A stretch of DNA of 64,000 nt from a virus: the IMG/VR virus record IMGVR_UViG_3300047320_000210, positions 19,922 to 83,921 of that record, one strand, 5' to 3'. Made by a program: the position numbers and the translations under genes. Below the pieces are notes generated by a model. That model saw only the letters and a list, made by a program, of their open reading frames with translations, did no database searches and was not told where the DNA came from. The stretch's first letter is position 1, and each line of letters begins with the position of its first letter. Positions 7,016-64,000 of the stretch are shown here, piece by piece.

Positions 7016-7552
7016 ATGTCGTTGTTCCGCCAAAGCAAGCCGAAGGTCACGCTGCTGTTCAAGGAAGTCCTTGGCGAAATCATCGAAACCCAGCCCGACC
7101 TGCCCCTTGGGGTGGCCATCGAACTGGCGGCCGAACAAGCCAAGCTCCCCTGCCCCGATTTGGAGGCGATGGCCCGGCGCCTGATGGAAGACGCCGCACC
7201 GCCGCCCGAGGAAAAGCCGTCCCAGCCCGGCCCGAAAGGCAATGGCTACGGCGCGAACTGGAGCACCTGGTTAAACGGCCTGAAGACCGACCAGCTGTGC
7301 TTGTGGCTGTCCGACTACGACGCGCAACGGGCGCAGCACTTGTACTGCGAGGTCGAGATGGACCTCGTCAAGGCAATGATCGAACTGAAGACCGCCCACA
7401 TCTGGCAAGACCTGCGCACCCGCTTTGAAGCCTGTCTGCTCGGCTTCGGCGGCAAGTTGGGCAGTCAGGACACCACCGTCCATGACATCGACATGACCGA
7501 CAAGCAGTCGGTGGACTCGATGATCGACATCATGAAAAAACTGGGGTTCTAA
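7016..7552 (+). CDS. Tail assembly chaperone (putative)
   Basis: GGAGG RBS; lies between tail tube and tape measure. Confidence 0.65.
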   Translation: MSLFRQSKPKVTLLFKEVLGEIIETQPDLPLGVAIELAAEQAKLPCPDLEAMARRLMEDAAPPPEEKPSQPGPKGNGYGANWSTWLNGLKTDQLCLWLSDYDAQRAQHLYCEVEMDLVKAMIELKTAHIWQDLRTRFEACLLGFGGKLGSQDTTVHDIDMTDKQSVDSMIDIMKKLGF

Positions 7553-10500: not shown

Positions 10501-13500
10501 GATGGACCTCTCGCGCGCCTTCGACATCCGTTCGACGAACGCCATCAAGGCGATGATTTCGAACCTGGAGGAACTGGCCGCCAACGAAGGCAAGATCACC
10601 TTCGGCCGCGCTGCGGCAGAAGGCGCCGCCACCACCATCGAAGGGTTGAACGCCAGTTTTACCCGCCTGATCTCGACCATTACCAGCTTCACCTACAACC
10701 GCAGTGAAGGCCTGCTGGGCTACTTCGCCGATGTGTTCCAGGGCCTCGACAACGCCATCCAGAAGCTGGATGAGTGGGACCTCAAGCGCCGCTCGATGGG
10801 CGAGGTGTCGCTGTCGGGACCCAACAGCCTTTTCGGTTCGATTGACTCGGCGGTTAACCCGTTCGCCGCGCCGCGCAACTACTTCAAAAACAAGATCGGG
10901 GAAATGTTCTCCAGCGGGCCAACCCCCGAAGAAGCGGTGGATCAGGCCAACTCCGGCGCCCAAGGCTTGTCGCGGAAACGGTTGGAATTCCAACAATTCG
11001 AAGACTCGGCGCGCAACACGGACATCCGCCTGGCCAAACTCGGCGAGACCGTAGGCAGCGCAGGCGACGGGCTGGTCAAGATCGAGAAGGTGTCCGACGA
11101 CCTGAACCTGACCATTGCCCGGGTGTTCGGCCCGGGGCTGGAGGACCAGCGCCAGCAGCTGGTGAAGCTGGCGCAGAGCTACAGCAACCTGACCATCAGC
11201 GAACGTGAAGTTCGCATCGACGAGCTGATTAAGAAGTACCCGAAACTAAAAGAGATCGACCCTGTCCAGCTGGACCGCAGCTTGGCCTCCATCGCCGGCA
11301 TGGGCACGGCGGTGGACGGCTACCTCAAAGGGCAGGCCGACAGCCTGTCGAACGAACTGGCGAAAGCCCACGAAACGCTGGAAAAGCTGGCACTAAAGGA
11401 CAAGAAACCCACATCCCCGAAAGAGATCGAGGCGGTGGTCACTGAAGAAGTGGCCCTTCGATTCCCTGAACTGATGGACATCATGCGCGGCGACAGCAAG
11501 CTCGTGGCTGGCCAGCAGATCACCATCATGCAAATGGCCTCGCAGGCGTTCTCCGACCTGATGCGGTCCAAGGGTGGCGGCGGGTTCCTAGAGAATGAGG
11601 CCAAGCTACAGGCCGAAGCCCTGCTGCAGAAAATCAAGGCGATCTCGCTGACCCGCCCCCCGGCCACTGCCGGGGTGGACATCCGGCAGGCGGTGCAGTC
11701 GCTGGAAAAGGAAAACGAAAAGCTCGGCAAAAACGCCGTCAGCCGCATGCAGCAGATCAAGGAATTCCTGATCCAGGCGGCGGACAAGCTGGACCCGGGG
11801 GCCAACAAGACCCTCGTGGGAGCTGGGGTCCAGGAGATCACCAAAGGGCAGGAAATCACCGGCGCCAAGTCGGTGGCCGAGATTGACGCACGGGTCGCGG
11901 TCAACAACGAACTGTTTGAGAAGGTTCGCACCAACCCGGATTTCCGCACCAACCTGTTGCAGATGCCGGACACCACGGTGGGCCGGGAGAAGGCGCTGTC
12001 CTACACGGCGCCGGGTAGCCAAGGCATCCCGATGGAGGATGTGCTGAATGGCACGGATGCCTACAAGGATTTCTTGGCGCTGGCCAAGACGTTTAACGAC
12101 ACCTACCTGAAACAGGCCGAAGTCCGCAAGGCCTATAAAAAGGAGCTGGATCAAGGCCGGGCGCTGGGCGATGCGGTGGAAAAAGCCACCACCCAGTACA
12201 ACGACGACCGCACCAACAAGCAGTTCCCCGCCGCCCGCGACTCGCTGAACGCCAAGATCAACGCGCAGATCGCGGTGGAGAATGAAAACCTCGCCGAGGC
12301 GGAACGCCAGCGCGTGGCCAACTTGTCGAACACCGACATCGACAAAGACAAGACCATTCTCAAGAACGAGCTGGACGCCAAAGCACGGGTTGCCAAGCTG
12401 GAGATCGAGCGCGCCAAAGAACTGGAGCAGATCAACCGCGAAGAGAAGAAGGTCAACCTCAAACGCACCGAGGGTGAACTGCAGGGCCGCGAGAAACGCC
12501 TGCTGGGCGTGCTGGACAACGCCACCAACGCGACCCCACAGGGGGTCATCGACGACACCATTGCCGAGCTGAATGATGTCCGCGAACAGTTGAAGGTGGC
12601 GTTCCGTGAGCGCATCAAGCTGCAAGGGACGGAGAACGACCTCTCGGAAGCCGAGATCGCCGAGCGGGAGAAGGCGCTCGACCAGTACCAGAAACAGGTC
12701 GGCTTCCTCGAACTGAATTACCGTCGCGAGAAAGGTGCACGCGAAGACCTCGCCTCCCTGCTCGACATCACCATGACCACCGGCAATCCGGTGCGGGACG
12801 CCGAACTGGAAGACCGTGGGCTGATCCCCGGGAATCGCGGCCGGCGCACCGAGTTCCTGCAGGGACGCATGGGCATCCTGCAGGAACTCGTCAAATCCAG
12901 CAGCAGCGACCTGGGCAAGGCGTCCGCCGACGTAACCCGGCTGCAGGCCGCCTCGGATGCCGACACCGGCAATGCCGAACTGAGCAAGTCGTTGCGCTTG
13001 GCGAAGGAGTACGAGCGCGACCTGGTGCACGAGACCGCCAACTGGAACCGCGAGCTGGGGCAAACCGGGCTCGCGCTGGAACGCGTCAGCGGCACCTGGA
13101 AAAGCGGGTTCACCAAAGCCTTCGACCCGAACGTCATTTCCCGCGCACTGGAGCAGTCGGAATCCTCCCTGGAGCATTTCGGCGAGGTCATCAACAGCGA
13201 GGTGGTGACCGCGCTGGAAAGTGTCGGGGATGCGTTCGCCGATGCCGCGCTGGAAGGCGAGAGCCTGTCCGGCTCCATCGAGAAGGTGTTCTCCCAGCTG
13301 AAGAAGGAGACTCTGCGCACCCTGATCAAAACCCTGAGCAACGAGACGATCAGCACCCTGACCGGCACGTTGTTTGGTGCTCAGAACGGCAAAGGCCAGG
13401 GGTTCTTCCCGGCGCTGCTGCAGAAATTCGGCCTTGGCGGGGCAGGCACGCCTGCGTCCAAAGCACCGGCCAGTGGCACCACCGCGACCGAGGCGCCCGT

Positions 13501-40468: not shown

Positions 40469-41197
40469 TCACTCCTTCTCAGGTGGGTTCAGCAGACGCA
40501 AGATCCAGTGCTCCTTGAACAGCCGGTCGCTCGGGTCTTTGTCAGGGTCTACATCGATGTCGGGGCGCGCCGGCAGGAACTGGATGCGTTCCAGTGGCGC
40601 GGCCTTGGGGAATTCCAGTTTGAACACTGGGCGTGGCAGGCGCGTCAGCGGGCTGGGTTCCTGCAGGTAGGCGGCGAGCTGAAACTCGTCGCCGAGCAAG
40701 CGCTCGCCGAGGCCCAGGATTTCGTAGGACGGGTACTCGTTGGCGAGGAACACCAGCACCAGCCAGTCCTCGCCCGGCAGCACGAGGCCGAACAGGTCGG
40801 TGAGGATGGTCAGGGTGAATTCGGCTTCGTCCGGTTCCAGCACCACGCCCTCGGGCCAATCCCTGCGCAGGTCGGCCAGCGGGAACGTGACACGCGACCA
40901 GCTGCTGCGGGCCACGGCCTTGAGGGTGTAGGCCGCCCACAGGTCGCCGGCGAAACCAAGGGCCAGGGTCCATTGCCCTGGTGCCAGTTCCGACAGGCCG
41001 ACCGACTTCAACCGGCGGCGCGCTTCGGCGTGCAGGATGTAGGTCAGGAAGCCTTCACCGTCGCGGCCGGTGAGCAGTTCGATCCACTCGTCCGGCTCGG
41101 CGGCCTGCGGAAACAGATGGAACGCCCGGCACGGCGACTGCTCGTAGGTGAGCGCCGCGAGGCGGCGCTCTTGTTCGCGGATCTGTTCAGGTTTCAT
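40469..41197 (-). CDS. Hypothetical protein
   Basis: GGAG RBS; coupled to upstream gene; 242 aa. Confidence 0.7.
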   Translation of the reverse strand: MKPEQIREQERRLAALTYEQSPCRAFHLFPQAAEPDEWIELLTGRDGEGFLTYILHAEARRRLKSVGLSELAPGQWTLALGFAGDLWAAYTLKAVARSSWSRVTFPLADLRRDWPEGVVLEPDEAEFTLTILTDLFGLVLPGEDWLVLVFLANEYPSYEILGLGERLLGDEFQLAAYLQEPSPLTRLPRPVFKLEFPKAAPLERIQFLPARPDIDVDPDKDPSDRLFKEHWILRLLNPPEKE

Positions 41198-42534: not shown

Positions 42535-42909
42535 TTAGATCGGCTTCGCCCAAGTCAGGACGGTCTTCAAACCGAACTGCTCGATCCAGCCCTTGATGGT
42601 GAGGTGATCGCGGCGGCCGGAGTCAACCACGTCGCCGCTGTGCGGGTTGGTCCAGCGTTTCATCTTGCCCACATGCGCCTTGCCTTTAGGCGCGCTCGAC
42701 TTCTCGGCGGCCTTGATCGCCATCTGCTGCCCGTGCATGAAGGCGTACAGCTTGTCCTTGGACATCGAGTATTTAGACAGCAGGTCTTCCAGCTCGGCGT
42801 CGAATTCCAGTTCGCGTTTCAGCTCAGGATCATTCCTGAGTTCTTCGACGGCGGTAACTTGTTTGGCCAGCGCCAATTGCGCGGCTTTAAACTCGGCGAT
42901 CTTGAACAT
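42535..42909 (-). CDS. mvaT: MvaT/H-NS-family nucleoid protein
   Basis: DPELKRELEF..L..Y N-terminal region and NPHSGDVV..H..IKGW..FG C-terminal region match MvaT. Confidence 0.88.
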   Translation of the reverse strand: MFKIAEFKAAQLALAKQVTAVEELRNDPELKRELEFDAELEDLLSKYSMSKDKLYAFMHGQQMAIKAAEKSSAPKGKAHVGKMKRWTNPHSGDVVDSGRRDHLTIKGWIEQFGLKTVLTWAKPI

Positions 42910-42955
42910 CTGTACTTCCTTAGTGGGGTAATTTCAACGGTTCAGCAGGTGGAAC

Positions 42956-43342
42956 TTAGGCCTGTAGCCACGACTGCACGACGTCTTCGCCGTAGGTCTC
43001 GACCCACAGTTTGTAGGTGCCGTGGCTCAGGCGTTTGATCGTCAGCACGTCGCCGGTGTGGGGGTTGAGGAACGTCTTTGCGTCCTCGGGACCAGTCGCG
43101 CGAGTCGCCTTAGTCTTGCTGGCGACCGGCTTCTTGTAGAAGTCCGAGGTGATGTCCGCTTTCAAGAACAGCTGCAGCTTGACCTTGTTCATCGAGTGCT
43201 GCGCAAGGAAGTCGTCCAGGGCCACGTCGAAGGCTATCTCTTTCTGCAGTTGCGGGTCTTGCTTGAGGGCTTCGAGGTAGGTGTACTTCTGAGCAAGTTG
43301 CAGTTCGAGTTCGCGGTACTGTTCAATAGCTAACATAGGCAT
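42956..43342 (-). CDS. mvaT: MvaT/H-NS-family nucleoid protein (second paralog)
   Basis: IEQYRE..DPQLQKEIAF..NPHTGDVL..H..KLWVETYGEDVVQSW. Confidence 0.88.
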   Translation of the reverse strand: MPMLAIEQYRELELQLAQKYTYLEALKQDPQLQKEIAFDVALDDFLAQHSMNKVKLQLFLKADITSDFYKKPVASKTKATRATGPEDAKTFLNPHTGDVLTIKRLSHGTYKLWVETYGEDVVQSWLQA

Positions 43343-43404: not shown

Positions 43405-44019
43405 TTAAATCTCGCGAGCATATTCTTTGCGGGTGATGGCGATGGTTTCGATAACACGTAAGCCGTACTCGCGGGCCTTACGGCCTGCCGCTAGTTCGGC
43501 TTCTAAGGTATTGATACCGGGGTCACAGTGATAGAACGGAATTAGCGTGCCATCAGCACGCGCCACCTGTAGCACCACTTCGATCTGCCGCTTGATTAGC
43601 GTGGCGTGGTGTTTGGTTTTAGGGCGCGTGAAGGCCGCTTCGGCTGTTTCTAACGGCGGCTTGGCTTTAAGCGGGGTTTTCTTCTTAACGACAACGGGAG
43701 CAGGTTCAGCGGGGGTTGTATCTAAGCCCCAGTCGCGCCGCAGTTGCGCTGCGAGGTCGTCTAACTCGGCCCGCTGTTGGGCGGCGGCGGTTAGCGGGGA
43801 CGGGTCTGAACTGTTGAACGTTATCTGATCTAGGGTAGACGCTTGAAGCAAGGCCAGCTGGGCTTGTTGTTCAGCTAATTTGCGCTTGGCTTCTTTCTTC
43901 TTGGATACAAAGGGGCGGTGCTTGGGCTCGGGCTCTACGATGATTGACGCTAACACACTGCGTATGCCGGCCTCTGTGTTAGCCAGTCTGCTAAATCCTG
44001 ATGATGTATTCAAAGCCAT
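43405..44019 (-). CDS. Hypothetical protein with lower GC
   Basis: AAGGA RBS; 204 aa; many TTA/CTA codons. Confidence 0.65.
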   Translation of the reverse strand: MALNTSSGFSRLANTEAGIRSVLASIIVEPEPKHRPFVSKKKEAKRKLAEQQAQLALLQASTLDQITFNSSDPSPLTAAAQQRAELDDLAAQLRRDWGLDTTPAEPAPVVVKKKTPLKAKPPLETAEAAFTRPKTKHHATLIKRQIEVVLQVARADGTLIPFYHCDPGINTLEAELAAGRKAREYGLRVIETIAITRKEYAREI

Positions 44020-48043: not shown

Positions 48044-48280
48044 CTACAGGGAACCGTAGCCGTCTTTTTCAAGCGAGGCCTTGATCAGCCCGCTCAGGGT
48101 TTTCGGACCTTCATCGTCTTCTTTGTTCTGCAGCCGACGTTCCTCCAGTCGACGCACCAGCGACTTCGGTAGGCTGATCGACAGCGACACCGGCACGTCC
48201 TTGACCCCGTCGTAGGGGATGTCGGACAGCTTTTTCTGCAGCCGCGCGGCGACGTCGGTCGCGGTTTCGGACTTAGACAT
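48044..48280 (-). CDS. Small ribbon-helix-helix partition partner (ParG-like)
   Basis: Overlaps the parA stop; VSLSISLP strand followed by two helices. Confidence 0.65.
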   Translation of the reverse strand: MSKSETATDVAARLQKKLSDIPYDGVKDVPVSLSISLPKSLVRRLEERRLQNKEDDEGPKTLSGLIKASLEKDGYGSL

Positions 48281-48914
48281 GGAACACCTCGGTCATCAGT
48301 TCATTGATCTCTTGGATCGCGTCTTTGTTGCGTAGCTCCAGCACCGACAGCCCGAGGTCGGTGCTGTCCTTGTAGACCTTGCGCGAGCGGCCGATGCTGT
48401 TGAGCACTTCGAATTCAGGGAAGGCCGCCAGCCTCTTGAGGAATTTCGCCCGTTCGCTGACCCTGCCAGCGCTGTGCGTGCTGGCGATGGCCTGATAGAC
48501 CAACACCCGCAGCTTGGGGTTTTCCGGCTTGATTTCGGCGTACTGTTTGCGCAGCTGGCGCAGCGTGTCGAGGTCGAAGTCGCTGCACTGGTGCGGCGCG
48601 ATCACCACGTCCGCCACCACCATGGAGGTGATCAGCTCGGCGCTGTTGCGCCCGGCGACGTCGACCAGCACATGGTCGTACTGGGCGGCGAGACGGGTGA
48701 CGGCGTCCACCAGATTGCCGTACTTCTGCGTGAGGGGCACCTTCGGCAGGTGGTTGCCCGCTTCCCGGTGGCCATACCACAGGTGACCGCTGGCCTGGCC
48801 GTCGGCGTCGAGCACGCAGACGTTCTTGCCCTTGCGCATCAGCCCCACCGCGAGGTTCACGCAGGTGGTGGACTTGCCGGCGCCGCCCTTGTTGCACCCG
48901 CACACGACGATCAC
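48273..48914 (-). CDS. parA: ParA-family Walker-type partition ATPase (type Ib, no N-terminal HTH)
   Basis: KGGAGKST deviant Walker A; LDADGQ; VLVDVAG. GTG start at 48914 with AGGT RBS. Confidence 0.9.
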   Translation of the reverse strand: MIVVCGCNKGGAGKSTTCVNLAVGLMRKGKNVCVLDADGQASGHLWYGHREAGNHLPKVPLTQKYGNLVDAVTRLAAQYDHVLVDVAGRNSAELITSMVVADVVIAPHQCSDFDLDTLRQLRKQYAEIKPENPKLRVLVYQAIASTHSAGRVSERAKFLKRLAAFPEFEVLNSIGRSRKVYKDSTDLGLSVLELRNKDAIQEINELMTEVFHV

Positions 48915-48966
48915 GGGGTCATACCTGCAAAGTTCATGTTTCTTCTCCCGGGGCGTGAAAAACCAG

Positions 48967-49029
48967 TGGGTACTGTGTACCCATCGCGGGAGCGTAGCCA
49001 GAGCGCTGCGAATAAGCAATTGCTTATTC
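48967..49029 (-). promoter_or_regulatory. Putative parA promoter with two palindromic operators
   Basis: TTGCTT-N17-TACGCT on the - strand (49019-48991). The -35 lies in a perfect 20-bp palindrome GAATAAGCAATTGCTTATTC (49010-49029); TGGGTAC-TGT-GTACCCA (48967-48983) is downstream. Confidence 0.6.
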
Positions 49030-59891: not shown

Positions 59892-60207
59892 GGCGGGGCC
59901 TCCTTCTTCATAGGTGACCGATGGCGGGGTGGGTGGGTTGCTCAGGATTCTGAGCAGTACAAGTGTTCACTGAAAAAGCGAGGAAGCTACTGACGGTTTT
60001 GCGTGGCTACCCCTTTGTGCGTGGATTTATTTTTGGTAGGGGTGGGTAGGCTATTGCTATCCGTGGATTGTTGTGGGTGATTACCCTGCTACCTTGCTCG
60101 CTTCGTAGCCTGTGACCGATTGGGTTTTTTGGTAAAATTCGTAAGTGGTTGATATGTAAGGGGAAAGGTCGTTTTGGAGGCCGATGCTTCGAGAAAATTT
60201 GGCTCAC

Positions 60208-60250
60208 AAACTAGTGATCTAGTCAAGCTAAATAACTAGATCACTAGTTT
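60208..60250. repeat. Perfect 16-bp inverted repeat with 11-nt spacer
   Basis: AAACTAGTGATCTAGT-N11-ACTAGATCACTAGTTT. Confidence 0.9.
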
Positions 60251-60308
60251 TTTGTCTAATTCCGACCCACTTTTGGACTTGAAAATTGACTGTTTTTTGA
60301 AGTCAGTA

Positions 60309-60372
60309 GCCTTTCTCTCTCTTTTATATAAATAGTTATTAATAATTATTTACAAAGAGAAGAGAGAAGGCC
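60309..60372. repeat. AT-rich quasi-palindrome
   Basis: Core TAAATAGTTATT|AATAATTATTTA (one mismatch) flanked by a CT-rich arm and a complementary GA-rich arm. Confidence 0.75.
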
Positions 60373-60396
60373 CCGACCACCTCCTGCGGGGCCTTT
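60367..60396 (-). terminator. Terminator-like hairpin downstream of the recombinases
   Basis: AAGGCCCCG..CGGGGCCTT with a pyrimidine tract on the - strand. Confidence 0.55.
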
Positions 60397-60423
60397 CGTG
60401 CCCTTCCTAGGCCTGTCGCCTTC

Positions 60424-61029
60424 CTAGCCAGCGGCCTGCGCTGACTTCACCGCCTGGACGGTGGACTTCGCGCAGTCACAAACCGTGGCGATCTTCCTGA
60501 TCGACACGCCCTCGGCCAGCAACAACTTGATTCGTTCGTGCAAGGCGGCATCGGGCACCCGGCCCTTGTACTTGCCGTCGGCCTTGGCCTTGTCGATGCC
60601 GGCCTGTGCCTTGCGCAACCGTTCTTCATGCTGGCGCGAGCTGACTGCGCCGAGGATGTCGAGCAGCAGCTCGTTCATCAGGTTCGGTTCGTGACTCTTG
60701 GCGTCCGTCGCCGCCCAGGAACCGGGCACGTCCAGGGCGATCACGCGCAAGCGTTTCTCGCGGATGATCCGGCGCAGCTCCTGCCACTCTGGCGCCTTCA
60801 ACCGGCCCAGTCGTTTCACGCGATCACACAGCAGCATGTCGTAGGGCTTCGCCTCGGTCAGCATGCGCAGCAGTTCGGGGCGCTTGAAGGTCTGGCCGGC
60901 GTCGTCTTCGACGTAAGTGGCGACCAGATCGAGGTCGTGCTCTTCAACGAACGCCGTCAACGTCGGAATGATTCGTTCGTAGCCCAGCGCCGCGACGTAG
61001 GCGCGCACGGAATAGTTAGGGGTCGGCAT
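60424..61029 (-). CDS. Serine resolvase-like protein lacking the catalytic Ser
   Basis: RPEL..D.L...RLGRL, KA.GKYKGR and a C-terminal HTH are present, but the N-terminus reads RAYVAAL instead of Y-x-R-x-S. Confidence 0.8.
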   Translation of the reverse strand: MPTPNYSVRAYVAALGYERIIPTLTAFVEEHDLDLVATYVEDDAGQTFKRPELLRMLTEAKPYDMLLCDRVKRLGRLKAPEWQELRRIIREKRLRVIALDVPGSWAATDAKSHEPNLMNELLLDILGAVSSRQHEERLRKAQAGIDKAKADGKYKGRVPDAALHERIKLLLAEGVSIRKIATVCDCAKSTVQAVKSAQAAG

Positions 61030-61096
61030 GAATGCCTCCTTCAAGTGGGGGATTGATCCGTTCCAGGTTGCTGCAGGTAAATGACGCCTTCGTAGC

Positions 61097-61663
61097 TCAG
61101 GCGGTTTCGTCCTGCGTGGCTGGCAGGTGACGGTAGAGCGTGGCCAGCGAGACGCCAAGGTTTTTTGCCACGTCAGGCATGGGTTCGCCCGAGGCCAAGA
61201 GTTTGCGCGCGCTGTTGATTTTGCTCGCGGTCATCTTGCGGGGCCTACCGCCAAAGCGACCGAGCGCGTTGGCGGCATCGAGCCCGGCGCGCGTTCTCTC
61301 CAGAATCAATTCCCGCTCCATTTGAGCGAAGGCTGCGACGATGTGAAAAAACAGCCGGCCCATGGCCGACGACGTGTCGAGCTGTTCGGTCAGGCTTTTG
61401 AATTTGATCCCGGCCTTGTCGAACTGCTCCATCAGCAAAATCAGTTGCTTGAGACTGCGCCCGAGGCGATCGAGCTTCCACACGACCAGCGTGTCACCTG
61501 GGCGCAGCCTGGCTAACAGGTCATCGAGCACGGGGCGCTCCTTGACGCTGCTCTCTTTTTCGAGAAAAACCTGATCGACGTCGGGCTCTTTGGCGAACGC
61601 CTGCGTTTGCAGCGCCAAATTTTGCTTCTCCTTGTCGGAGATCCTGCCGTAGCAGAATTTCAT
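61097..61663 (-). CDS. Serine recombinase (resolvase/invertase, Hin/Pin-like)
   Basis: YGRIS, RP, GDTLVVWKLDRLGRS, ERELILERT, GGRP and HTH GVSLATLYR; AGGAGG RBS. Confidence 0.93.
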   Translation of the reverse strand: MKFCYGRISDKEKQNLALQTQAFAKEPDVDQVFLEKESSVKERPVLDDLLARLRPGDTLVVWKLDRLGRSLKQLILLMEQFDKAGIKFKSLTEQLDTSSAMGRLFFHIVAAFAQMERELILERTRAGLDAANALGRFGGRPRKMTASKINSARKLLASGEPMPDVAKNLGVSLATLYRHLPATQDETA

Positions 61664-61692
61664 AGCTGTACCTCCTAGGAGAGTGGTGGGGA

Positions 61693-61855
61693 TTCTCAAA
61701 ACTCAAGGCAAACGGAAATTTTCTCACAACTCGCGTTTGGGGGGTGGTTTCGAGAAAAGGTTTTGAGAGAGGTATTTGAGAACGGGAAACGCCCGGTTTT
61801 TGGGCCGGGCGATTTCCGTCTCAAACTTTCGCAAATGCGACCGTTATTGAGAACG
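61693..61855. promoter_or_regulatory. res-like recombination site
   Basis: Several (T)TCTCA(A)/TGAGAA half-sites in both orientations directly upstream of the resolvase. Confidence 0.6.
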
Positions 61856-61869
61856 GCCAAACGCGGGGT

Positions 61870-62208
61870 TTAGCGCTTTTTGTCGCGCCGGTGGGATTTA
61901 CTCATGGCCTTGGCCAACTCCCGGCCAAACGTGCCACGTTGCGCTTTTTTCTCCGCGCGCTGTTTCGCCTGGAGCAGCCCAGGCGCGCGCGGCTGTGTCG
62001 CGTTTTCCTCCAGCGCGTGAATCAGTTGCGCTTGCCGAAGTTGGTACAGCACGCGCGGGATCAAATCGGCCCGGTCGCGCTCGCGATCTGCGAGATCGGC
62101 AGAAAACAGGCTCGCGGGGGACCGGTCGCCGAAGTCGTCGCCCCACATGGATTCCGTCGTGTGATGTCGTCGCCAGTCACTGGCGCCTGTCGAATCGTCG
62201 AAGGCCAT
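61870..62208 (-). CDS. Hypothetical protein with basic C-terminus
   Basis: AGGAGG RBS immediately after a 20-bp palindrome. Confidence 0.55.
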   Translation of the reverse strand: MAFDDSTGASDWRRHHTTESMWGDDFGDRSPASLFSADLADRERDRADLIPRVLYQLRQAQLIHALEENATQPRAPGLLQAKQRAEKKAQRGTFGRELAKAMSKSHRRDKKR

Positions 62209-62221
62209 GGTCATTCCTCCT

Positions 62222-63392
62222 ACGCGCCACATGTGGCGCGTCACATGCGCCGGAAAAATCAGGCGCGCACACGAAAGCCCCCCGACTAGCGGGGGGCGTT
62301 TTCACGTCTGGCGGTTTAGCTGTTTTGCGCGTCCAGCTTTGCCGCTGCGCGCGCTGCATCGTCCGTCGCTTTCGCCTTAATCGCGTTGGCGATGGCCATG
62401 GCGCCCAAACTGGCGTTTTGCGCCTCACGCGCCAACTTGTCACGCTGCAATTGTTCACTGCAAACAAAGTGCAGCATGGCGGACCATGCTGCGCCATCCA
62501 GCGCCATCAGCCCAGCATGCGCGCCATCGGCAGACTTGCCGAAGGCGCCGACGACAGCCTTTGTCGCTTTTTCGGCAGTGGTCGCGCCCCCGTCAAGGTC
62601 GCACTCTGAATAGTCGCCGGTCTGCAAATTGACCTTAACGCCATACTTTTTAAGCTGGCGCTCTATCCGAGTGACAATCACGTTTCGCGCCCCCTTGCAC
62701 GCTGCGCTGCGCTGCTTAGCTGGCGCATCGTCGGGCATGCTCTCAAGGGCTTTTTCTTGCGCTGCTTTTATGGCGATGTTGGCGAGCCCCACATATTCGA
62801 CCAACAACGGCGCAGAGTCGGCGCACAGCGGGAAGTCTGGCGCTGTCGGCTCGCCATCCTTGCCGAATTCGCACAGCTCAAGGTCCAGCAGCACAGCGAC
62901 CGGCAGAAACATTTTGTCGCCCAGCGTTTGCGCCCACTTAACCGCATCTTTTTTGTGGGCGGACGCGCCACATGTGGCGCCATGGCTGCGCGCACTTTTG
63001 AGCAACTTGGCAAAGGCGACATCAGCGGCGCCCCGTTTTTCTGCTTGCTCAATACCGTAGTCCGACAGCTCAGCAGCAAGCTTGCTGGCGGCAAGTGCTG
63101 ACAGGTCTGGAATATCCAGCTCAGCAGTGGACTTGTATGCACGGCCGACAGCAGCGGCCTTTGCTTTGTCGATGGTCACTTTGCTGACGGGCGACAGCTT
63201 GCCAGCAACATCGACAGGCGCCACATGTGGCGCCGACAGCGTGCCGATGGTCGCGCCCAGCGTAGGCAATACATCAGGTACGTCTGCCAGCTCAGCAAAC
63301 AACGCTGCACAGCCTTGCTCGCCCAGCTTGCCCAGCAAGTCAGCAAGGGGGCGAGCCTCAAGCGAGCACAGCAAGGCGCCACATGTGGCGCC
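62222..63392. repeat. Four copies of perfect palindrome GCGCCACATGTGGCGC
   Basis: At 62224-62239, 62965-62980, 63218-63233 and 63376-63391. Confidence 0.95.
62272..62302. terminator. Bidirectional terminator-like hairpin
   Basis: AAAGCCCCCCG-ACTAG-CGGGGGGC-GTTTT. Confidence 0.7.
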
Positions 63393-63503
63393 GTGAAGGT
63401 CTGACAGCATGGCGCTTGCCGCTGCGCCATCGGCACAAGCGACCAACAACACGGACAGGTCTGACAGGCTAGGCCTATCAGACATAAGGGCTTGACTGTT
63501 CAT
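62316..63503 (-). CDS. Orphan Ala-rich protein (395 aa)
   Basis: GGGAG RBS; coupled to an upstream sORF; followed by a terminator; no family recognised. Confidence 0.7.
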   Translation of the reverse strand: MNSQALMSDRPSLSDLSVLLVACADGAAASAMLSDLHGATCGALLCSLEARPLADLLGKLGEQGCAALFAELADVPDVLPTLGATIGTLSAPHVAPVDVAGKLSPVSKVTIDKAKAAAVGRAYKSTAELDIPDLSALAASKLAAELSDYGIEQAEKRGAADVAFAKLLKSARSHGATCGASAHKKDAVKWAQTLGDKMFLPVAVLLDLELCEFGKDGEPTAPDFPLCADSAPLLVEYVGLANIAIKAAQEKALESMPDDAPAKQRSAACKGARNVIVTRIERQLKKYGVKVNLQTGDYSECDLDGGATTAEKATKAVVGAFGKSADGAHAGLMALDGAAWSAMLHFVCSEQLQRDKLAREAQNASLGAMAIANAIKAKATDDAARAAAKLDAQNS

Positions 63504-63628
63504 CTAGTAGCACTCCCGTTAACGGACAGCGCCAGCTTGCCAATGACACTGCTAGTAACGCCACCTACAGCGCCCCCTAGGGCAACGGCAAGGGCAAGGG
63601 CGATAAGCACAGCGGCAACGGCTCTCAT
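63500..63628 (-). CDS. 42-aa hydrophobic membrane peptide (not in ORF track)
   Basis: TAAGGAG RBS; MRAVAAVLIALALAVALGGAVGGVTSSVIGKLALSVNGSATR; ATGA overlap with the 395-aa gene. Confidence 0.65.
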   Translation of the reverse strand: MRAVAAVLIALALAVALGGAVGGVTSSVIGKLALSVNGSATR

Positions 63629-64000
63629 GATGGCGACTCTCCTTAATGCTGGCAGTGGCGTTGGGCCATGGCATCAGCGAACACGCATACAACTAAGAGC
63701 AAGCCTAGTCCACCCCATACCGGCACACAAGCATTTTTTAAAAGAGACGCCACCCCCTGACGCCTGGGCAACACCTGGACGGCAGACGCCTGGGCGCAGC
63801 CTGGCTAAAGCATGATAAGCACAGCAACAAACGTGCCAGCATGCAACAAACAAGCCACCCACCCCACACTTTTTTCCGACCGACGGACTTGACACACCTC
63901 CCTACAGACCCCCTCGCCACCCAAAACCCCCTCAAAATCCCAGCTGTACCCAGTACCCACGGAAAATACCGTGCCAATTAACGCGCCACGTTAAAACAAT

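Follow-up and report, generated by a model that had tools for sequence, protein, structure and literature searches.

Repeated perfect palindromes in the first leftward operon of an uncultivated soil phage as candidate regulator-binding sites

In an uncultivated siphophage of ~81.5 kb, the first leftward operon carries four exact copies of one perfect palindrome, all of them within the first 1.4 kb of the leftward unit. The sites are real and non-random, they are retained from strain to strain, and a relative has a related dyad at the syntenic place. A protein-binding site of the autoregulation type is the most likely reading. More specifically, we tentatively propose, with a confidence a little short of even, that the palindromes are operator and roadblock sites of a candidate phage regulator of this operon.

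Copy number and symmetry of the palindrome

The window, i.e. the whole 64-kb stretch of DNA analysed here, is the end of an 83.9-kb record of an uncultivated soil phage and contains four exact copies of GCGCCACATGTGGCGC, at 62224, 62965, 63218 and 63376, with spacings between neighbouring copies of 741, 253 and 158 bp. Copies with one or two mismatches are absent from the window, and the sole extra match at three mismatches lies at 43560. Shuffled sequences gave a mean of 0.17 matches at up to two mismatches, and four copies were reached in 0 of 100 shuffles. The exact scan and the shuffles thus confirm the number, the positions and the exactness of the copies described in an earlier note on this DNA. 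Its statement that no copy occurs elsewhere holds for the window, which has exactly four, but not for the whole record of 83,921 bp, which has seven, the extra three falling within a terminal duplicate at record 1-2438. The maximal perfect palindromes measure 20 bp (62222-62241), 16 bp (62965-62980), 18 bp (63217-63234) and 18 bp (63375-63392), in agreement with the extension to 18-20 bp that had been noticed at three sites, and in all four copies the symmetry runs perfectly through the centre. The genome overall is not palindrome-rich, with 31 perfect palindromes of at least 12 bp compared with 19-36 across ten shuffles, and GCGCCACATGTGGCGC is its sole repeated palindrome.

Outside this phage the 16-mer occurs at chance level: it is present as single copies in eight IMG/VR stretches and in at least 118 metagenome stretches, and among the 80 metagenome matches listed, multiple sites were found only in three overlapping loci, all of one contig. 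That contig, with three copies, proved unrelated, its 16-mers being embedded in a REP-like element of 40 nt where the DNA has 72% GC. In the papers searched, neither the 16-mer nor its 14-nt core gave a match, and the matches listed for shorter cores look unrelated by title.

The locus and its genes

The features of the locus are listed below by window position; the coding phases of sites 2-4 are all read on the minus strand.

60424..61032, minus strand: RP4-ParA-type resolvase homologue, helix-turn-helix kept, catalytic Arg-x-Ser motif lost
61097..61663, minus strand: intact small serine recombinase of the DNA invertase type (Pfam Resolvase 1.6e-37, plus HTH_7)
61870..62208, minus strand: 112-aa gene, start directly after site 1; product with an acidic N-terminal half and a basic (Arg/Lys-rich) C-terminal tail
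62222..62241: site 1, 20-bp perfect palindrome, flanked by the terminator-like hairpin that follows the 395-aa gene and by the Shine-Dalgarno of the 112-aa gene
62277..62297, minus strand: GC-rich terminator-like hairpin (8 G-C pairs, weak T-tract) immediately past the 395-aa stop codon
62316..63503, minus strand: 395-aa gene, first large gene of the leftward operon
62965..62980: site 2, 16-bp palindrome inside the 395-aa gene, coding GATCGA (residues 175-180)
63217..63234: site 3, 18-bp palindrome inside the 395-aa gene in the other reading phase, coding APHVAP (residues 91-96)
63375..63392: site 4, 18-bp palindrome inside the 395-aa gene, coding GATCGA (residues 38-43); the variable site
63500..63628, minus strand: hydrophobic 42-aa ORF with a good RBS, directly upstream of the 395-aa gene; its counterpart in the relative G001 has 45 aa
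63812..63839, minus strand: sigma-70-like promoter match CTGGCA-16-TATCAT in divergent intergenic DNA that precedes the 42-aa ORF

The promoter match is the only one in 59.5-64 kb; it rests on consensus alone, and shuffles also yield one by chance. GC across 62-64 kb is 0.60. The invertase matches PHROG 125 (DNA invertase, 8.6e-62). The resolvase homologue is the orthologue of intact resolvases in G001 and in a second element, G002. Together with an 88-aa Xre-type protein (record 7042-7305), these two recombinases are among the helix-turn-helix proteins of the phage. A recognisable DNA-binding domain was found in neither the 112-aa nor the 395-aa protein. The 112-aa protein has six homologues of 75-84% identity and a homologue in G001 of 35% identity; it matched no family in Pfam or in whichever of PHROGs and NCBIfam was scanned, and its family gave no sequence match among solved structures and no usable match in the protein atlas. 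By tblastn, neither the 395-aa nor the 112-aa protein matched GenBank phages.

The 395-aa protein consists of a variable N-terminal part of ~150 aa and a conserved, all-helical C-domain of ~250 aa, and its two strain copies differ by a dN of 0.125 and a dS of 0.48. It fits no known family in Pfam or in whichever of PHROGs and NCBIfam was scanned. The label of orphan had to be corrected, since the protein has eight metagenomic homologues (58-85% identity) and its C-terminal 250 residues match 13 further, more distant cluster representatives; the family of first genes spans 241-395 aa. Other searches returned little: a 10-sequence alignment of the family found nothing in viral, metagenome and genome contigs, no homologue was seen among 131 loci beyond four from the record itself, and a scan with the single protein gave one weak match, L013 (33% over 62 residues). 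The full-length model is poor (pLDDT 47) and that of the C-domain is good (pLDDT 91). With the latter, Foldseek found no match in PDB and BFVD at E ≤ 0.001, a wide VIA search gave long-helix matches only (Z ≤ 7.0), and the protein atlas held no usable match. The earlier suggestion that this protein itself binds the sites is not borne out, as its confident C-domain model fits no DNA-binding fold and part of site 2 rests on an old G-x3-G protein motif (18 of 18 sequences).

Placement and coding constraint of the sites

Site 1 is followed directly by AGGAGG and the ATG of the 112-aa gene, so that one copy does adjoin the RBS of the next gene as the earlier note had it, and the other three were likewise found where it placed them, within the 395-aa ORF in two phases (GATCGA twice, APHVAP once). 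The central codons are rare in this phage: ACA makes up 3.9% of Thr codons, TGT 13.1% of Cys, CCA 7.9% of Pro and CAT 15.9% of His. Two reading phases, one intergenic copy and rare central codons point to a constraint on the nucleic acid, and the selection on DNA rather than protein that had been suspected is supported by these traits and by the syntenic palindrome of G001.

Conservation among the eight close homologues was judged from peptides, not from DNA. In this comparison APHVAP of site 3 is invariant (10/10) and GATCGA of site 2 is retained in nine of ten close homologues; at site 4, ATCGA is found in only five of the eight homologues that cover the position. Site 2 overlies the family motif G-x3-G, whose G175 and G179 are invariant in 18/18 aligned sequences.

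Record 1-2438 is a direct duplicate, 89.7% identical, of window 61564-64000 and represents a second-strain version of the locus. This copy keeps sites 1-3, site 1 exactly, and conserves a 32-nt island around site 3; site 4 is absent. In one rhizosphere run the second-strain version reaches a depth of ~320-380, compared with ~11-18 for the window version. Site 4 is dispensable, as the abundant strain does without it. Outside the sites, codons of identical residues are unchanged between the strains in 235 of 310 cases, and against this background the 12 unchanged codons in sites 2 and 3 have a probability of ~0.04. Taken alone, the strain comparison is weak evidence for a constraint on the sites.

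Related dyads in other elements

A profile search of viral contigs with a diverse homologue alignment returned G001 alone, a syntenic relative of 81.7 kb (81,709 bp) that has 88 of 119 query ORFs in common with this phage. Its locus reads leader, 45-aa ORF, 241-aa homologue of the 395-aa protein, a hairpin equivalent to 62277..62297, 112-aa homologue and resolvase. GCGCGACATTGTCGCGC lies in the leader and CGCGACACAGTCGCG shortly before the RBS of the 112-aa homologue, with the half-site GCGCGAC compared with GCGCCAC in this phage. Across the 81,709 bp, CGCGAC-N3-GTCGCG has those two matches only, both exact. The earlier note had held that an absence of the palindrome from homologous genes of related phages, joined with synonymous disruption without effect, would count against its reading. 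Part of this is what was found, since the 241-aa gene contains no such palindrome and the second strain lacks site 4, but the position before the 112-aa gene is kept.

G002, an unrelated element of 42.7 kb, carries six dispersed copies of CGTGAC-N3-GTCACG, compared with none of the reversed control. All copies have the same arms but differ at the centre (AAT/ATT or TTT), and outside the site their flanks show no relation. The centres differ in G001 as well (ATT, ACA) on fixed arms, and this combination is the signature of a dimeric DNA binder. Two G002 copies, 32 bp apart, bracket a sigma-70-like promoter match (GTGACA-17-TATGTT, by consensus only) that precedes a 117-aa gene, covering its -35 box and start region. 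Another copy shows the arrangement of terminator, site and RBS seen in this phage, and the sites stand upstream of genes on both strands. The 117-aa protein matched no family in Pfam or in whichever of PHROGs and NCBIfam was scanned, and a kinship with the 112-aa family was rejected (hhalign probability 0.2%). Nor do the Xre-type proteins of G002 and this phage align with one another, and strong sharing of genes between the two elements is limited to the resolvase (E = 3e-39). The resemblance of the G002 sites may be due to chance, which we estimate at ~1 in 100 given 11 dyads in that locus. Related dyads occur in three of the nine loci with this type of resolvase, namely in this phage, G001 and G002; the other six, four plasmid and two GenBank phage loci with resolvases 41-58% identical to that of G001, have none.

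Discussion

We infer that a protein binds the sites and that transcription is repressed as a result. In the proposed mechanism, a symmetric, dimeric, sequence-specific DNA-binding protein would recognise the palindromes and control the first leftward operon, which would extend from the divergent intergenic region, across the 42-aa ORF and the 395-aa gene and past the weak terminator hairpin, into the 112-aa and serine-recombinase genes. Bound to site 1, which abuts the RBS of the 112-aa gene, the protein would hinder RNA polymerase or loop the DNA; on sites 2-4 within the transcribed 395-aa gene it would act likewise, and the outcome would be a feedback shut-off of the early unit. A roadblock or looping would be needed for operator action there because no promoter-like match adjoins site 1 or lies inside the 395-aa gene. 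The preferred candidate binder is the 112-aa product, which would make the circuit autoregulatory, followed by the catalytically dead resolvase homologue acting through its helix-turn-helix; another phage regulator, e.g. the 88-aa Xre-type protein, and then a host factor would rank lower. One conserved binder is awkward, since the half-sites are spaced by 2 bp in this phage and by 3 bp in G001 and G002. The autoregulation-type binding that the earlier note had listed is favoured by the reading phases, the rare codons and the syntenic palindrome of G001. Of the traits of operators, the locus shows several copies of one short dyad above chance (four exact copies, 0/100 shuffles) and sites within the unit that they would control, with their place kept in G001 and with promoter calls that are consensus-only.

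The palindromes might instead act in RNA, as hairpins for binding or processing, which we consider unlikely. All four fall in one leftward transcript and would form stems of 6-8 bp with a CAUG loop; the hairpin of site 1 ends 1-2 nt before the Shine-Dalgarno, where it or a bound protein could set translation or stability of the 112-aa message, and a factor of antitermination type could be loaded by the upstream hairpins before the terminator hairpin is reached. The RBS-adjoining hairpin keeps its position in G001, one G002 site has an identical layout of terminator, site and RBS, the C-terminal tail of the 112-aa protein is rich in Arg and Lys, and the minimum-energy fold of 62195-62310, which also encloses the terminator hairpin, includes the site 1 hairpin (z = -3.05, 1 of 200 shuffles as good). 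However, the intragenic sites are of ordinary stability in their context (z = -1.2, -1.0 and -0.26), and the would-be loops vary in the relatives (ATT, ACA, AAT, TTT) on fixed arms, the reverse of what loop-reading RNA binders would leave. Symmetry through the loop, present in 4/4 copies, is not needed for RNA folding, the G002 sites lie around a promoter and upstream of genes on both strands, and Rfam gave two microRNA chance matches only (E > 0.4). A pairing of anti-Shine-Dalgarno type across site 1 was dropped because G001 is unable to form it. Somewhat less probable again is a role in recombination, with the sites serving the adjacent serine recombinases for crossover or binding; two such genes lie 0.5-1.8 kb downstream of site 1. 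The sites would be without polarity because the central dinucleotide AT is symmetric, and if site 4 recombined with site 1, the body of the 395-aa gene (1.15 kb) would be inverted or excised along with its terminator, so that the 112-aa and recombinase genes would come to follow the promoter, the 42-aa ORF and the first 43 codons. A polarity-free switch of this kind at the start of the early programme, flipping or excising a fast-evolving first gene and its terminator, is in itself improbable. If it were true, each genome would enter infection with one of two units on, the 395-aa protein or the 112-aa/recombinase module, and the 43-codon stub, read from the sequence in the GATCGA phase of a site 4/site 1 hybrid, would stop at a TAG overlapping the AGGAGG of the 112-aa gene. 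In G001 both palindromes flank the homologous gene and the hairpin beside an intact resolvase, and the resolvase is what this phage shares with G002; among 30 IMG/VR loci with relatives of the 200-aa invertase, four bear some repeated 6+6 dyad, and two of these have identical palindromes of 12-16 nt within ~1.6 kb of the invertase gene. Sites of small serine recombinases are ~26-30 bp long, with outer recognition blocks and A/T-rich centres. The recombinases here are adjacent, but identity between the copies ends at 16-20 bp with dissimilar flanks, and a shared site of ~26-30 bp with outer blocks was not found. The resolvase orthologue of this phage is without the catalytic serine, and the intact invertase, whose gene is preceded by TTGAGAAC-type repeats of its own, is missing from the syntenic G001 locus. 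Recombination at the six dispersed G002 sites would scramble that genome, and other resolvase loci have no such dyads (0/6). Across sites 2 and 3 the homologous proteins remain colinear in ten of ten cases, and the opposite-strand frame of the segment between these sites holds a stop codon. Contigs from three runs showed no strand switch or site-to-site joint, which is weak evidence because contigs lose rare forms.

The earlier note had also offered a centromere, an origin or a packaging signal. We find it very doubtful that the sites are a centromere-like cluster of a plasmid-like prophage or an origin or packaging signal for DNA handling. According to PMC3597684, inverted repeats of 16 bp, whether in clusters or scattered, characterise parS, sopC and RK2 OB sites, and a ParA-type ATPase together with a resolvase-family protein is encoded in this phage, G001 and G002. 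But the ParA gene of this phage (48276-49019) is 13 kb away and has a different 20-bp palindrome at its start, in G002 the ParA operon comes with repeats of its own and with a ribbon-helix-helix partner, Pfam scans of 109 proteins (81 + 28) turned up no ParB domain, and the palindrome does not resemble the 16-mers of sopC and parS given in PMC3597684. An origin is opposed by spacings of 158-741 bp, which are not iteron-like, and by the lack of an adjacent A/T-rich unwinding stretch inside the gene; packaging is opposed by the terminase genes, which are ~15 kb away (record 15.8-18.6 kb), and by the G001 locus, which lies mid-record, the end repeat of that record being merely a 127-bp assembly overlap. 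Least probable of the readings weighed here is that the sites have no function and are a by-product of an internal duplication of the peptide H-G-A-T-C-G-A plus chance. The G-x3-G(A) of site 2 is an old protein motif with self-complementary codons, GGC GCC; one and the same heptapeptide is encoded at sites 2 and 4, in comparable helical surroundings; and at record 4380 a different gene contains the dyad CGCCAC-CT-GTGGCG, which encodes ATCG with a common Thr codon. A peptide duplication, however, explains neither site 3, which is in the other phase and codes an invariant peptide (10/10), nor the intergenic site 1, and the rare codons and the syntenic palindrome of G001 would be left over.

On the operator reading, the repeated palindromes are most likely a neat yet fairly ordinary kind of control element. 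They would amount to compact dual coding, with one protein-binding sequence of 16-18 nt placed in two phases of a fast-evolving gene, where it would fix the peptides APHVAP and GATCGA and force rare codons. The sites would also flag an early-operon control circuit common to a small group of uncultivated soil phages of ~81 kb, in which both the first-gene family (241-395 aa) and the candidate regulator are without known relatives. The first gene of a phage early unit often has a host-takeover or anti-defence function, and understanding how this one is switched would therefore aid the study of this protein family. The finding opens no long-standing question and stands as a prediction from sequence.

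Comparison with known systems

An auxiliary operator inside transcribed DNA is found in lac O2. Tn3 resolvase bound at res sites also represses adjacent genes. As in the Hin, Gin, Cin and Min inversion systems and at res sites, recombinase genes adjoin repeated dyads that flank a gene, and the symmetric centre would permit inversion or deletion; unlike in those systems, the sites are short (16-20 bp), G+C-rich, perfect and without accessory sites, the orthologous resolvase is catalytically dead, and no rearranged form was seen in contigs. The boxB/nut hairpins stand at the start of lambdoid early operons, and their conserved loop is read by a small basic protein. Short hairpins that recur close to where an early operon starts and about a terminator, with a small basic protein encoded nearby, recall this arrangement, but the loops are not conserved in the relatives, the centres are symmetric and one site comes after the terminator. 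Origins of the lambda O type have close, regular repeats beside an A/T-rich stretch inside the gene of the replication initiator, unlike the present sites with their spacings of 741, 253 and 158 bp in a gene that has no A/T-rich block and whose 395-aa product matches no replication family. Dispersed centromere sites are known from the phage-plasmid N15. With ParABS sites as described in the excerpt of PMC3597684, the palindromes have in common that they are inverted repeats of 13-16 bp in several copies per replicon, sometimes inside genes; they differ in the dissimilar sequence, the distant ParA with a different palindrome and the lack of a ParB-type protein among those found.

The stoperators of cluster A mycobacteriophages are an established system in which repressors also stop elongation at many sites spread across the phage genome (PMC9283540). 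According to the excerpt of that source, stoperators are asymmetric and read by a monomeric repressor, whereas the sites described here are perfect dyads, three of which lie in coding sequence in two reading phases. As in repressor-operator systems of this kind, there are several identical short sites within or before the genes of an early unit, which they would plausibly block or loop, and the related sites of G002 resemble stoperators in being spread over the genome, close to gene starts.

Results

Copies of the palindrome

An exact scan of the window finds the 16-mer GCGCCACATGTGGCGC at 62224, 62965, 63218 and 63376 (sites 1 to 4) and no near-copies with one or two mismatches; three mismatches add a single, unrelated position, 43560. 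In 100 dinucleotide-preserving shuffles the mean was 0.17 matches, and none of the 100 reached four. Extended outwards, the perfect palindromes at sites 1 to 4 measure 20, 16, 18 and 18 bp. The palindrome abundance of the genome as a whole is not high (31 of at least 12 bp versus 19-36 in ten shuffles), and the 16-mer palindrome is the only one of these 31 that recurs. The palindromes are real and non-random. Within the minus-strand 395-aa ORF (62316-63503), sites 4 and 2 encode GATCGA and site 3 encodes APHVAP, and site 1 is directly followed by AGGAGG and the start of the 112-aa ORF. The scan thus agrees with the earlier note on the four places, the two reading phases and the copy at the next gene's ribosome binding site (RBS). 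That no copy lies elsewhere holds for the window, but not for the whole 83,921-bp record, which contains seven copies; the window comprises record bases 19922-83921, and the three copies beyond it are all in the first 2.4 kb of the record.

A scan for perfect dyads with 6+6 arms and a 2-3-bp centre added CGCCAC-CT-GTGGCG at record 4380, outside the window, where it encodes ATCG within a 307-aa gene with a common Thr codon. In G001, a syntenic IMG/VR relative, it gave CGCCAC-CAT-GTGGCG at 41078, 45 nt ahead of a gene start. The chance expectation is ~0.05 for each, and both are weak extra sites to which we gave no weight.

The record and the phage

Record 1-2438 repeats record 81485-83921 (window 61564-64000) in direct orientation, with 89.7% identity and reaching exactly to the contig end. 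Contigs of the rhizosphere run X1 hold both versions, that of the record head at a depth of ~320-380 and that of the window at ~11-18. Due to this end repeat and the different depths of the two versions, the record is regarded as an assembly round a circle, or of a terminally redundant genome, that passes from one strain into another; its ends are chimeric, from two co-occurring strains, and the true genome is ~81.5 kb. The two strain copies match at 98-99% in their flanks and are far more diverged in the body of the 395-aa gene. The second-strain copy has sites 1, 2 and 3 unaltered and unrelated sequence in place of site 4.

The phage is of the siphovirus type and encodes a 2237-aa tape-measure protein, a family-A DNA polymerase, primase, helicases, an SbcCD-like nuclease, a ParA-type ATPase and two MvaT-like proteins. 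Its polymerase is just 33-35% identical to those of the nearest cultured relatives, and the sequencing runs with the phage sequence are labelled rhizosphere or soil metagenome. A CsrA-family protein is encoded at record 11743-12039 (Pfam 1.2e-22), and the two proteins with the MvaT DNA-binding domain lie at window 42538-43342; these genes hint at a Pseudomonas-like host and suggest that the phage interferes with global regulation in the host. A single-copy 20-bp perfect palindrome, GAATAAGCAATTGCTTATTC (49010-49029), coincides with the start of the ParA-type ATPase gene (48276-49019) and is probably the ParA operon's own operator or centromere element.

Operon layout

Features around the sites (window coordinates unless stated)
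~63630-64000, on into record 2439-2555: divergent non-coding region
62277-62297: G+C-rich hairpin with a weak T-tract, between the 395-aa gene and site 1
61097-61663, minus strand: small serine recombinase, invertase type, intact (Pfam 1.6e-37; PHROG DNA invertase 8.6e-62)
60424-61032, minus strand: second resolvase-like gene, orthologue of the G001 resolvase

From the divergent region the minus-strand order is a 42-aa hydrophobic ORF, the 395-aa gene, the hairpin, site 1, the 112-aa gene, the invertase and the resolvase-like gene. Within 59.5-64 kb a single sigma-70-like match was found, upstream of the 42-aa ORF; chance also gives one.

Several other repeats were observed nearby. The exact 20-nt direct repeat CCTGGGCGCAGCCTGGCTAA occurs in the invertase gene (61497-61516, encoding LARLRPG) and in the intergenic DNA ahead of the operon (63789-63808); the second-strain copy has it too, and 20 nt is far too long for a chance match within 4.5 kb. 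Several TTGAGAAC- and TTCTCAAAAC-like repeats (families D4 and D6) lie upstream of the invertase gene (61690-61870) and are possibly the invertase's own binding sites. The non-coding, A/T-richer stretch 59900-60420 contains a 16-nt perfect inverted repeat (60208-60223 and 60235-60250) and a 28-nt imperfect palindrome (60313-60368), and could be a promoter or origin region. The divergent intergenic region of G001 has a 22-bp perfect palindrome, TGGCACAACAATTGTTGTGCCA (L163:4756-4777); the matching place in this phage, across the window end (L132:2409-2445), has a looser GTGCCAATT...AATTGCAC inverted repeat. Either may be the operator of another regulator.

The 395-aa protein

Because dN is 0.125 and dS 0.48 between the strain copies, the 395-aa ORF is taken to be a real gene. 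The earlier term orphan gene is apt in that Pfam and PHROGs gave no match for the protein or its homologues, and NCBIfam none for the two proteins scanned (this one and one distant homologue). It is not apt in that the protein has eight metagenomic homologues (58-85% identity) and, in an exhaustive profile search, 13 further, more distant cluster representatives (223-344 aa) whose match is confined to residues ~150-390. The full-length model was poor (pLDDT 47), but the C-domain was modelled confidently from 20 sequences (pLDDT 91, pTM 0.69) as all-helical with a last helix of 58 residues. Foldseek searches with this model against PDB and BFVD found no match at E ≤ 0.001, and a wide structural search gave long-helix matches only (Z ≤ 7.0). 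The earlier proposal that this protein binds the sites finds no backing here, as the fold searches of the C-domain model gave no indication of a DNA-binding fold.

Constraint on DNA and on protein

G175 and G179 are invariant in an 18-sequence alignment that includes distant homologues; an old G-x3-G(A) motif therefore underlies the outer GGC codons of site 2, and GGCGCC is self-complementary. Among close homologues, compared at the peptide level, APHVAP (site 3) is conserved in 10/10, GATCGA (site 2) in 9/10 and ATCGA (site 4) in just five of the eight that cover the position. The codons at the site centres are rare in the phage (ACA 3.9% of Thr, TGT 13.1% of Cys, CCA 7.9% of Pro, CAT 15.9% of His), the same DNA is read in another phase at site 3, and site 1 is non-coding. 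These three observations agree with the earlier claim of selection on the DNA, not only on the protein. Between the strains, codons of identical residues outside the sites are unchanged in 235 of 310 cases, and all twelve codons of sites 2 and 3 are unchanged (probability roughly 0.04), which taken alone would be weak evidence for DNA constraint. The palindromes are thus constrained at the nucleic-acid level; both DNA and protein constraint act, and protein constraint alone cannot account for the copies.

The syntenic relative G001

The 81,709-bp record G001, found via the 112-aa protein, has 88 of 119 query ORFs in common with this genome; identity is 75-90% for core proteins, with far greater divergence in the early region. 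The 127 bp repeated at its ends are apparently an assembly overlap. The locus follows the plan of the window: leader, 45-aa hydrophobic ORF, 241-aa gene (a distant homologue of the 395-aa C-domain only), hairpin, 112-aa homologue (35% identical) and resolvase. The earlier note had named the homologous genes of related phages as a test for the palindrome: the G001 locus has no copy of it, but a related dyad stands at the syntenic place before the 112-aa gene. The leader carries GCGCGACATTGTCGCGC, and CGCGACACAGTCGCG lies between the hairpin and the RBS of the 112-aa homologue; both match CGCGAC-N3-GTCGCG exactly, and the whole record has no other match to it. Since the reversed control pattern gives five matches at up to one mismatch, this argument rests on position and not on count. 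The half-sites GCGCGAC (G001) and GCGCCAC (window) differ in one base, and the G001 arms are one base further apart. A site ahead of the 112-aa gene is thus a conserved feature of the phage group. The three intragenic copies belong to the 395-aa subfamily; two of them lie in the N-terminal part missing from the G001 protein.

Recombinases and the element G002

The catalytic motif Arg-Ala-Ser-Thr is present in the G001 resolvase. The orthologue in this phage (42% identical) has lost the catalytic Arg-x-Ser and reads Ala-Ala-Leu-Gly at this position, with a nearly identical helix-turn-helix; it is predicted to be catalytically dead. The intact invertase has no counterpart in the G001 locus; its gene overlaps that of the resolvase orthologue by ~60 nt (window 60424-61699; compare L163:6475-7128). 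The G001 resolvase is of the type of plasmid multimer-resolution enzymes: a 38.5%-identical homologue in a Salmonella record is annotated 'parA: plasmid stabilization protein, resolvase', and relatives occur on >5000 plasmids.

An IMG/VR search with this resolvase returned one more record, G002 (42,735 bp), whose overlap with this phage is limited to the resolvase (E = 3e-39) and a ParA of 25% identity. It also encodes a ribbon-helix-helix protein, an Xre-type protein and a Dam-type methyltransferase. G002 carries six copies of CGTGAC-N3-GTCACG (4000, 4032, 8956, 15552, 26586 and 36663; reversed control 0), with invariant arms and a centre of AAT/ATT in three and TTT in three. A promoter-like GTGACA-17-TATGTT (shuffle mean 0.3 promoter matches), 11 nt before a 117-aa gene of no known family, has its -35 box and its start region covered by two copies at a distance of 32 bp. 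Of the others, one lies between a T-tract terminator and an RBS, one 35 nt before the next gene and one upstream of the ParA operon; the six look like a genome-wide operator set. The G002 and G001 dyads agree at 13/15 positions, the two changes being mirror-symmetric. With 11 dyads in the G002 locus, we estimate the chance of such likeness at ~1 in 100 and treat the likeness as a lead, not proof. Six further resolvase loci (41-58% identical to that of G001; four plasmids, two GenBank phage records) contained neither a repeated dyad nor a match to the family pattern, which counts against a simple link of dyad and resolvase. Among 30 IMG/VR loci with invertase relatives, four have a repeated 6+6 dyad of other sequence, two of them as identical 12-16-nt palindromes at most ~1.6 kb from the invertase gene. 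The paired perfect palindromes of the two unrelated loci (L148:302 and 5752; L150:7600 and 7760) are TTGCACCGGTGCAA, and TGCAACGTTGCA inside a common TTGCAACGTTGCA; their flanks are unrelated.

Discussion

We tentatively propose that the palindromes are protein-binding DNA sites, operators of a putative regulator, a prediction that may well be correct. A dimeric DNA binder fits the constant arms and variable centres in G001 and G002, the full symmetry through the centre here, the placement at a promoter and just upstream of genes, and the identity of the copies. RNA hairpins would be compatible with the location of all sites within one transcript and with the positional conservation of the hairpin adjoining the Shine-Dalgarno sequence; however, the intragenic hairpins are of ordinary stability (z = -1.2 to -0.26), the would-be loops differ among copies in relatives and an Rfam search gave no match, so that we consider this role unlikely. 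It is quite unlikely that the sites serve recombination, even though recombinase genes adjoin them and a site 4/site 1 hybrid would in frame meet a TAG overlapping the next gene's RBS. Against this, the sites are short and rich in G+C, their flanks are unrelated, the orthologous enzyme is predicted to be inactive, six dispersed copies would be hazardous for the G002 genome, the ten homologues are colinear, and contigs of three runs contain no site-to-site joint, although rare forms could escape contigs.

The functions listed in the earlier note (origin, centromere, packaging, autoregulation) were too broad. A centromere is not supported: the ParA gene is 13 kb off with a different 20-bp palindrome at its start, the 109 proteins scanned include no ParB-type protein, and the sequence is unlike the sopC and parS sites printed in PMC3597684. 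Neither a replication origin nor a packaging signal agrees with the spacing or the gene content. A mere by-product of a duplicated peptide would leave sites 1 and 3 unexplained.

In conclusion, comparison of the genomes suggests that the palindromes, our candidate operators, are part of a conserved control point before the 112-aa gene in a small group of uncultivated soil phages. Among established systems, the nearest parallels are repressors with auxiliary operators in transcribed DNA and the 'stoperators', many sites at which repressors halt elongation (PMC9283540). Most likely, the sites belong, as operators, to a familiar kind of system, and their unusual trait is that a fast-evolving gene contains three of the copies, in two reading phases.
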